Sequence record: PQ511147.1
Origin: Escherichia phage NHEP3
Direction: 5' to 3' (one strand)
DNA: 44,039 nt
How positions within the stretch are numbered: position 1 is the stretch's first letter; each line of letters begins with the position of its first letter. Under the pieces are notes generated by a model. That model was not told where the DNA came from. It saw only the letters and a program-made list of their open reading frames with translations, and did not search any database. Positions 39,824 through 40,366 of the stretch are shown one piece after another. Both the position numbers and the translations under genes were made by a program.

Positions 39824-40366
39824 TTAGTCTTCCAGTTCGAAATAGGTTTCTACGATTTCTTTAAGATCTTTGTGGAAGTCTTCGACGTCTTCATCTTCCA
39901 GCTTGGCGATTGATTTGATCTCGAACGCTTCCAGCAGGTCGTCGAATTCGTCGTTGGCGTCGTCGTCGTCACCACCAGCGATAATAGCGGCGTACTGTTT
40001 GATCTCGTCGCGCATCTCTGCCAGCGGATCGGCATCTTTCTTGCCTTTGCCTTTCGCCGGAGCTTTTTTACCCTTCGCGGGCTTCACGTCATCGGCGTCA
40101 TCGTCGTCGTCATCTTCTACGACTTCTTTTTTGGCCTTACCTTTAGACTTGGTTTCTTTTGCCGCGCCTTTTTTCGTTTTAGGCGTATCTTCGACTTCGT
40201 CCTGATCGTCGTCGTCTTCGACTTCAGTCTCCGGCTTGGCCTTGCCTTTCTTAGCTGTGCCGTTTGCTTTTGGGTCTACGGCAGCGCCAACGGTTTCATA
40301 ATGCTTAGCGATGATTTCCAGTGCTACTACGCCGCGAGTGATCAGGTTTACGATTTGCTCAAACAT
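39824..40366 (-). CDS. first early protein: small helical N-terminal domain followed by alternating poly-Lys and poly-Asp/Glu low-complexity tracts (181 aa)
   Basis: GGAGATATACC-ATG start at 40366 (the track ORF extends further upstream without a Shine-Dalgarno); sequence KKGKAKPETEVEDDDDQDEVED...KGKGKKDADPL...DDDDANDEFDD. Confidence 0.6.
   Translation of the reverse strand: MFEQIVNLITRGVVALEIIAKHYETVGAAVDPKANGTAKKGKAKPETEVEDDDDQDEVEDTPKTKKGAAKETKSKGKAKKEVVEDDDDDDADDVKPAKGKKAPAKGKGKKDADPLAEMRDEIKQYAAIIAGGDDDDANDEFDDLLEAFEIKSIAKLEDEDVEDFHKDLKEIVETYFELED

Follow-up and report, generated by a model that had tools for sequence, protein, structure and literature searches.

A charge-block protein of the Dhillonvirus replication module and its candidate electrostatic partner, the tail of a gp2.5-like SSB

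The leftward replication operon of Escherichia phage NHEP3 (PQ511147.1) begins with a gene for a 180-residue charge-block protein, for which we use the working name KDE protein. The window analysed here is the whole 44,039-nucleotide (nt) stretch, essentially the complete genome of a Dhillonvirus, an HK578/JL1/SSL-2009a-like E. coli siphovirus. The KDE protein is real, widely conserved and wholly uncharacterised, and our comparison suggests a new, specific and cheaply testable lead to its role, a matched polyampholyte tail on the gp2.5-like SSB (a protein that binds single-stranded DNA) encoded in the same operon. We tentatively propose that the KDE protein may be a non-enzymatic, stoichiometric accessory of the T7-type replication/recombination machinery, making multivalent electrostatic contacts with the SSB tail and/or DNA. 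The proposal draws on strict association with the replication module, expression that looks stoichiometric as for the SSB, the conserved ends of the protein and its charge complementarity with the SSB tail.

The KDE protein and its family

The open reading frame (ORF) lies on the minus strand at 39824-40366, stop codon included, with its ATG at 40366-40364 and its stop at 39826-39824. The initial annotation had recognised a genuine ORF but credited it with 181 residues, a figure that included the stop codon; the 181 codons specify 180 amino acids. The sequence contains Asp 30 times, Lys 28 times and Glu 23 times; it has 30 basic residues in all and a net charge of -23. The protein matches the hidden Markov model of PHROG 3127, an uncharacterised phage family, over its full length (E 9.7e-50, residues 1-180 against positions 1-178 of the 178-position profile), and a word-indexed search recovered 178 homologues. 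When 1.84 billion cluster representatives were searched exhaustively with a profile, only 66 matched, all of 31-212 residues.

Structure and disorder prediction with AlphaFold2, a check proposed with the initial annotation, gives a helix at residues 2-25, disorder at 26-113 and a three-helix bundle at 114-176; together with composition and blockiness, this bears out the earlier description of alternating Lys and Asp/Glu tracts following a helical N-terminus. All three parts are encoded on the minus strand. The conserved N-terminal helix (residues 2-25; 40292-40363) is amphipathic and is predicted with a local confidence score (pLDDT) of ~50. The disordered polyampholyte linker (residues 26-113, 88 residues; 40028-40291; pLDDT <50) holds three Lys-rich and two Asp/Glu blocks, and the conserved acidic C-terminal three-helix domain (C-domain; residues 114-180; 39827-40027) is modelled with a pLDDT of 85-90. 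Residues 31-112 are near-neutral (22 K/R, 24 D/E), their charges being strongly segregated into the blocks K33-44, D/E46-60, K63-80, D/E81-93 and K95-110; this blockiness exceeds that of 5000 shuffles of the same residues by ~7 standard deviations, and no shuffle reached the observed value (0/5000). Tandem repeats in the DNA are an inadequate explanation of the charge blocks, as a search for them found short GAC-type runs only. Residues 113-180 (68 residues) carry a net charge of -20, and a fold search with the C-domain found generic helical-bundle matches only.

Full-length family members range from 115 to 212 residues and share one common architecture, in which conserved ends flank a hypervariable centre. 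Among 129 distinct members the linker spans 24-97 residues, whereas the C-domain keeps to 61-72 residues (median 66) and is always acidic, with a net charge of -4 to -21. The invariant residues are R11 and E17 in the N-terminal helix and R119 and F164 in the C-domain. Judged by this alignment, the alternating tracts are the least conserved part of the protein, an evolvable linker and not a conserved core. At least one polybasic patch is nevertheless kept in the linker of every one of the 129 members, its type following lineage: Dhillonvirus has a K/G/A/P-rich patch, Jersey-like phages have KPKRKPRKAK, and TRTRK, TRGK or RGRGRGR occurs in distant members. Linker blockiness likewise lies above that of shuffles across the family (median z 2.8), of which the window protein is the long, blockiest extreme. 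Alignments that cover at least 80% of the KDE protein come from only 2 of 154 phage records, and in most of the records listed its ends are 94-99% identical. Phage UAE_MI-01 is 96.7% identical to the window across the region studied, to which 174 phage records match. The clade also takes in Kagunavirus and ORF42 of Jerseyvirus SETP3, which is sometimes given the label '13.88 kDa late protein' from phage MB78.

The choice of start codon, which the initial annotation had marked for checking, is upheld at MFEQ, as all relatives, even those at 30-40% identity, begin M[FL][ED][QK]. A longer in-frame ORF from TTG 40594 and database versions of 207-239 residues are annotation artefacts, given this shared start and given that the extension consists of a segment of the 5' untranslated region (5'UTR) absent from other Dhillonviruses. 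The segment, of ~150 nt (about 40393-40545, minus strand), is present in some Dhillonviruses and absent in three relatives (L010, L016 and L018); it is open in frame with the KDE gene, which explains the N-terminally extended GenBank and nr annotations.

Sequence searches of Pfam, NCBIfam and the PDB with the KDE protein and its family met low-complexity families only (GET2, BUD22, CDC45 and similar), and no solved structure was matched beyond generic helical bundles. A PADLOC match to a JetC/MukB-like protein (E 8e-4) is weak, falls over the low-complexity region and was judged spurious; an ACP-like or ribosomal L7/L12-like reading of a C-domain motif was ruled out by hhalign and fold search.

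The replication module and its charge-patterned SSB

The leftward operon encodes, in order, the KDE protein, an 83-residue protein, a 62-residue protein, a DUF2800 PD-(D/E)XK nuclease, a small ORF, the DUF2815 (gp2.5-like) SSB and PolA, and it diverges from a helix-turn-helix (HTH) gene and an AAA_25 primase-helicase gene. Loci anchored on the KDE gene, found through the N-helix motif, contain the primase-helicase, DUF2800, SSB and PolA genes in the same order wherever the locus is long enough. Conversely, of 80 loci retrieved with the DUF2800 nuclease, 77 have a KDE member upstream on the same strand; the remaining three begin at most ~760 nt from the nuclease and the upstream region falls outside them, so that the assessable loci number 77 of 77. 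Even the most distant module found (L181, PolA 35% identical) still has the KDE gene. This strict two-way synteny argues that the gene is a core component of the module and not a mobile anti-defence accessory gene.

The proposed partner is the 82-residue C-terminal tail (36800-37045, minus strand) of the SSB (ORF 36797-37600). Dhillonvirus SSBs are gp2.5-like (10.1101/2022.08.27.505566), and that of the window matches Pfam Enc34_ssDNA-bd, a family whose structurally characterised prototype, Enc34 ORF6, has an acidic tail like T7 gp2.5 (PMC5686142). The tail of Enc34 ORF6 is purely acidic. That of the window SSB reads SDEDLGDDDEDE / APRKSKKSKRR / DDDDEDD / KPRKSKKSKRR / DDDDDEEDE / KPRKRRKPR / DDEDEDDDEDE / APRKRRRR, four acidic blocks alternating with four basic ones and ending in PRKRRRR, and the KDE protein and the SSB are the only proteins of the genome with tracts of such kind. 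Tail length differs between lineages, from 26 residues in Jersey-like phages to 63-82 in Dhillonvirus, and the number of blocks varies too.

The two proteins covary in charge. Across 80 unique genome pairs, the K+R count of the SSB tail correlates with the net charge of the KDE C-domain (rho -0.70) and with the K+R count of the KDE linker (rho 0.62). Lineage means change near-monotonically, from 6 tail K+R and a C-domain charge of -10.5 in Jersey-like phages to 24 and -19.3 in Dhillonvirus.

A similar design recurs in a wider set of modules. In six phages (Casjensviridae and others) the first gene after a divergent regulator and primase encodes a KDE-like protein with an N-terminal helix (e.g. 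..LETIAAN..), a usually basic K/T/A/P-rich linker and a helical C-domain, with an acidic end in four of the six. This gene is unannotated in two, Pectobacterium phage MA12 (L185:4147-4545, strand not given; N-terminal helix, K-rich linker, helical C-domain and acidic end) and Synechococcus virus S-ESS1 (L190:3752-4159, strand not given; the same design, with KPAG repeats in the linker); both ORFs sit upstream of exonuclease/SSB genes, in the same module position as the KDE gene. When the six first-gene proteins (from Enc34, LAh_7, MA12, S-ESS1, BCU1 and Pseudoalteromonas phage AL) were aligned against the KDE family with hhalign, the match fell on C-domain helices 2-3 (P 4.4e-4, probability 34%), and this, with the positional equivalence, makes them probable remote homologues. 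Purely acidic SSB tails are paired with basic-only first-gene linkers in Enc34, LAh_7, MA12 and S-ESS1 (Casjensviridae). Stenotrophomonas phage BCU1 has a polyampholyte SSB tail together with a first-gene linker made of an AT-hook, PKRGRGRP, and long Glu/Asp blocks; its paired charge blocks are likely to be an independent occurrence.

Signals of high expression accompany this pairing. By a list of E. coli-optimal codons, the KDE ORF has the top fraction of such codons among 54 ORFs (0.71), and the SSB is second (0.66). A published proteome of cells infected with phage EE09 (PMC10673088) detected no more than four phage proteins, CDS56 and CDS61 among them, and CDS56 is absent from the proteins that the text of that paper names for cell-free lysates. 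CDS56 is the KDE homologue, and CDS61 is the SSB by position and size. The KDE gene also has a promoter, a strong ribosome-binding site and a terminator to itself. Together these signals indicate that it is probably very highly expressed, among the most highly expressed of the non-structural genes.

In the accessory role that we propose, the KDE protein would serve the primase-helicase, the DUF2800 exonuclease, the gp2.5-like SSB/annealing protein and PolA. The Lys blocks of the KDE protein would contact DNA as well as the acidic blocks of the SSB tail, whose basic blocks would pair in turn with the acidic blocks and acidic domain of the KDE protein, while the N-terminal helix and C-domain would supply oligomerisation or docking; the outcome may be an SSB-DNA nucleoprotein that is organised, buffered or concentrated at replication sites. 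Physical interaction of the KDE protein with SSB or DNA, and every functional consequence of it, we infer from sequence. A bolder version, which we regard as rather doubtful, is that the KDE protein and the SSB tail form a charge-pattern-matched two-component system on single-stranded DNA, a membrane-less replication/recombination compartment. The complementary acidic and basic blocks would then come together, either through complex coacervation or in the manner of a multivalent 'electrostatic zipper'. Block numbers would evolve jointly in both genes, and such a system would have had more than one origin (in Dhillonvirus/Guernseyvirinae and in the Sanovirus BCU1) from an ancestral basic-linker protein and an acidic-tailed SSB.

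Several points weigh against these proposals. Two natural Dhillonvirus variants, P0092 (115 residues) and P0087 (122 residues, found on 44.8-kb contigs), have a 24-residue linker with a single basic patch and no acidic blocks, so the alternating blocks are dispensable for whatever core function the protein has. The covariation is confounded by phylogeny, as it amounts to about five lineages and one independent case, and within Dhillonvirus only tail length and linker length correlate (rho 0.59, n=17), not block counts. Alternatively, the two proteins might covary through a mutational tendency common to both genes, for example slippage in GA-rich repeats, or through a third partner that both share, for example DNA. 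The pairing fails in Pseudoalteromonas phage AL, whose SSB tail is acidic and whose first-gene linker lacks a polybasic patch. The EE09 proteome is very shallow, so that detection of CDS56 suggests abundance and does not prove it, and confidence in the predicted N-terminal helix is low.

Transcription signals and neighbouring genes

The KDE gene is the first of an operon with host-type promoters, as the initial annotation had read it, and early expression is plausible given those promoters and the position of the gene in the replication operon. The further claim, that it lies downstream of the strongest early promoter, holds in part. The best sigma70 match near the gene is the predicted distal promoter P1 (40667-40695, minus strand; TTGAAA-17-tgtAATAAT, with TG), one of only two 10/12 sigma70 sites in the genome; the other (31498-31526, minus strand; TTGAAA-17-TATAGT) overlaps the 5' end of a 231-residue ORF at 31405-32100. 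However, a conserved intrinsic terminator (40602-40637, minus strand; hairpin 40637-40611 followed by T9; fold z -2.46), with two compensatory stem changes in the relative L010, separates P1 from the gene, which has a proximal promoter of its own. This predicted sigma70-like promoter, P2 (40563-40591, minus strand; TTGACT-17-TAATAT, 9/12), would yield a ~190-nt 5'UTR, and its hexamers are kept in 10 of 10 aligned Dhillonvirus sequences. The Shine-Dalgarno sequence GGAGA (40373-40377, minus strand), 6 nt 5' of the ATG, is near-invariant in the Dhillonvirus alignment, and a predicted strong intrinsic terminator, GGCCCGC-loop-GCGGGCC with a T run (39786-39815, minus strand), directly follows the KDE stop codon. 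No credible Rfam match was found in the 5'UTR, which is not unusually structured (fold z-score +0.87); these results, and the ~150-nt segment being an indel, rule out a structured leader or riboswitch.

P1 and its terminator predict a small RNA of ~50-60 nt, in which ~24 single-stranded nt at the 5' end are followed by a hairpin and then U9, from a region that is near-invariant across the aligned Dhillonviruses. Specific targeting of the KDE ribosome-binding site was rejected, the duplex (-17.7 kcal/mol) ranking 8 of 60 translation-initiation regions, among which no convincing target was found. The P1 spacer contains a GC-rich palindromic stretch, CGGGCGCGCACGCGTG, which, read from sequence, could be an operator. 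Back-to-back with P1 lies a candidate rightward promoter for the HTH gene, TTGACA-17-TAGTTT (about 40700-40767, plus strand), and a 36-residue ORF annotated in this region as EE09_55 (window 40636-40746, minus strand) overlaps P1 and is probably no gene. The window yielded no match to the cos sequence that has been reported for EE09.

Downstream of the KDE terminator follow the 83-residue gene (39524-39775, minus strand; PHROG 4965), which recurs at 27-34% identity in many distant modules, and the 62-residue gene (39335-39523, minus strand; PHROG 9934), neither with an assigned function. The divergent HTH-type protein of 109 residues (40768-41097, plus strand) goes by the names transposase, resolvase or 'DNA recombination nuclease inhibitor gamma' in relatives; its only matches are to small HTH / sigma-70 region-4-type domains, and it is more likely to be the transcriptional regulator of the module, as is Enc34 ORF2. 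An acidic motif, [ST][DE][DE]DL, stands at or near the C-termini of the nuclease (EATDEDLSNE, near 37905) and the primase-helicase (SATDDDLKD, near 43372) and opens the SSB tail (SDEDLG, near 37040), and it is conserved in the lineages that were sampled. Its recurrence suggests a docking peptide that the three proteins use for one hub, perhaps PolA, as in T7.

Alternative roles and comparison with known systems

The one universal feature of the KDE linker, its basic tract, would suit an architectural protein that binds double-stranded DNA independently of the SSB tail, 'histone-like' in the manner of phi29 p6 or an HMGA/H1 analogue. With its Lys-rich or AT-hook-like tracts such a protein would coat or bend the DNA of the phage (perhaps at the origin) or of the host, and its acidic domain would modulate binding, as the acidic tail of HMGB does. 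The range of tracts fits such a role (H1-like and K/A/G/P-rich for Dhillonvirus; KPKRKPRKAK for Jersey-like phages; RGRGRGR or TRGK for the distant members; a canonical AT-hook, PKRGRGRP, for BCU1; and KPAG repeats for S-ESS1), and so does an abundant-looking protein encoded near the SSB in a replication operon, the phi29 genes for p6 and p5 being arranged similarly to those for KDE and SSB. The likeness to nucleic-acid chaperones or histone mimics seen in the initial annotation stands to this extent, as the basic tracts resemble those of histone H1/HMGA type and give way to RGR/AT-hook-like motifs in analogues and in the more distant relatives. Nonetheless, H1-type proteins are net basic, whereas the KDE protein has a net charge of -23, and only the composition of its three Lys blocks resembles H1 tails. 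The window linker has neither arginine nor an RGRP core, AT_hook is not among the Pfam families listed for 43 KDE members, no Pfam match to linker histone H1, Hc1 or HC2 was obtained, and for phi29 p6 the Pfam, PHROG and PDB sequence searches gave no match except PHROG 3127. Such a role, which would also leave the basic blocks of the SSB tail in the same lineages unexplained, strikes us as fairly unlikely. The contrast between conserved ends and a hypervariable linker (24-97 residues) can be read differently again, as a modular adaptor, for example a helicase loader or mediator, whose N-terminal helix and C-domain bind two replisome parts across a neutral spacer. Its strict association with the replication module agrees with this, and the [ST][DE][DE]DL motif on the nuclease, primase-helicase and SSB tail implies hub-type interactions. 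Yet a loader would not normally rank with the most abundant proteins of a phage, and very high expression is what the signals point to here, and a neutral spacer would be expected neither to keep a polybasic patch in every member and blockiness over shuffles family-wide (median z 2.8) nor to covary with the SSB tail, all of which makes the adaptor an unlikely account.

The initial annotation had offered an analogy with T7 Ocr, in which the KDE protein would be a DNA mimic or decoy directed against restriction, BREX-type systems, or H-NS/HU. Ocr is abundant and first in its operon, and the KDE gene, with its high-expression signals, host-type promoters and place at the head of an operon, invites the comparison, as does its very acidic C-domain (net -20 over 68 residues). 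But Ocr is a uniformly acidic, rigid, DNA-shaped dimer, and the KDE protein has 30 basic residues in three polybasic blocks and 88 residues of predicted disorder; no match was found to ocr, ArdA, any other Pfam family or a DNA mimic in the PDB, and there is no Ocr fold. The gene is moreover a strictly syntenic core of the replication module (77/77 assessable loci) and not a sporadic accessory, and the acidic linker blocks are dispensable in natural variants. The known counter-defence and trigger genes of Dhillonviruses are other genes: anti-Tmn is ORF35 of SMS22 and Ksap1 has 74 residues, both distinct from the KDE gene, and the triggers of RAZR, Borvo and Retron-Eco8 are the portal, PolA and SSB, respectively. 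The comparative sensitivity of Dhillonviruses to type I/II restriction-modification (PMC8594841) is also a poor fit. An anti-restriction role is thus, from the sequence evidence, quite unlikely. Position suggests one further candidate, the third part of a recombination module: a Gam-like protein that, in the manner of lambda Gam or T7 gp5.9, would inhibit host RecBCD or some other nuclease. The genes for the DUF2800 exonuclease and the gp2.5-like SSB/annealing protein lie just downstream of the KDE gene, much as lambda gam adjoins bet and exo, and the protein has an acidic helical domain. The KDE protein has no similarity to Gam, gp5.9 or Abc2, however, and to inhibit an enzyme present in few copies would call for neither such high abundance nor polybasic tracts, so that this candidate is very improbable.

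Hundreds of sequenced E. coli and Salmonella siphoviruses carry the KDE gene as an unannotated 'hypothetical protein'. The carriers comprise Dhillonvirus, Jerseyvirus and Kagunavirus, with Casjensviridae as probable remote homologues, and many are phage-therapy candidates or BASEL and SECphi model phages. Should the KDE protein prove to be an obligatory electrostatic partner of the SSB, it would supply a component so far missing from a very widespread phage replication module, provide a simple bacterial model of co-evolving charge-patterned disordered regions that organise nucleoprotein assemblies, and bear on defences that sense phage SSBs, such as Retron-Eco8, which is triggered by the SECphi4 SSB. 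The analysis also corrects mis-annotations, namely N-terminally extended ORFs, '13.88 kDa late protein' and 'prohead core protein'; the last label (GenBank PQ658967) was rejected, as the gene sits in the replication module and its EE09 homologue is among the proteins that the EE09 report names in its text for infected cells. Near-identical Dhillonvirus sequences also appear under unrelated hosts, in MG065648 (Campylobacter phage A144) and in Sodalis- and Acinetobacter-labelled records, and a Jersey-like sequence occurs on a contig labelled Taishania pollutisoli (L134); these host labels probably reflect contamination or mislabelling.

Among characterised systems, T7 Ocr (gp0.3) resembles the KDE protein in being abundant, encoded by the first gene read by host RNA polymerase and very acidic in its folded part, but the KDE protein has no homology to it, is half disordered, has 30 basic residues and belongs to a core replication-module gene. 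The p6 protein of phi29 is small, abundant and non-enzymatic, with an N-terminal amphipathic helix and an acidic C-terminal region. Like KDE and SSB, p6 and p5 (the phi29 SSB) pair a small abundant protein with an SSB, beside the polymerase in a replication operon; KDE and SSB are the two best codon-adapted genes, and the EE09 homologues of both were detected in infected cells. There is no sequence or fold kinship between p6 and KDE, however, and p6 lacks a polyampholyte linker and a folded acidic domain. With HMGA and H1-like proteins the likeness is one of tracts, as the K/A/P/G-rich tracts of some KDE lineages match in position the RGR/AT-hook-like tracts of others, with an acidic region adjoining. 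This recalls myxobacterial CarD, for which HMGA-like and H1-like domains are reported to be functionally equivalent. The window protein differs from these in having no RGRP core or linker arginine, no Pfam match and a net acidic charge.

Closer to the role that we propose are the blocky polyampholyte intrinsically disordered regions that drive complex coacervation, such as the K-block / D-E-tract nucleolar proteins and E. coli SSB condensates. The charges of the KDE linker are likewise segregated (z ~7), and here a second, complementary blocky disordered region sits on a DNA-binding partner encoded in the same operon; the eukaryotic regions are unrelated to the KDE linker in sequence. The acidic tails of T7 gp2.5, T7 gp4 and Enc34 ORF6 (PMC5686142) belong to the same type of machinery, in which electrostatic contacts between tail and patch organise the replisome. 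The arrangement described here differs from theirs in having the charged element on a protein of its own, and in an SSB tail that has become an acid/base block copolymer with PRKRRRR, not an acidic tip, at its end.

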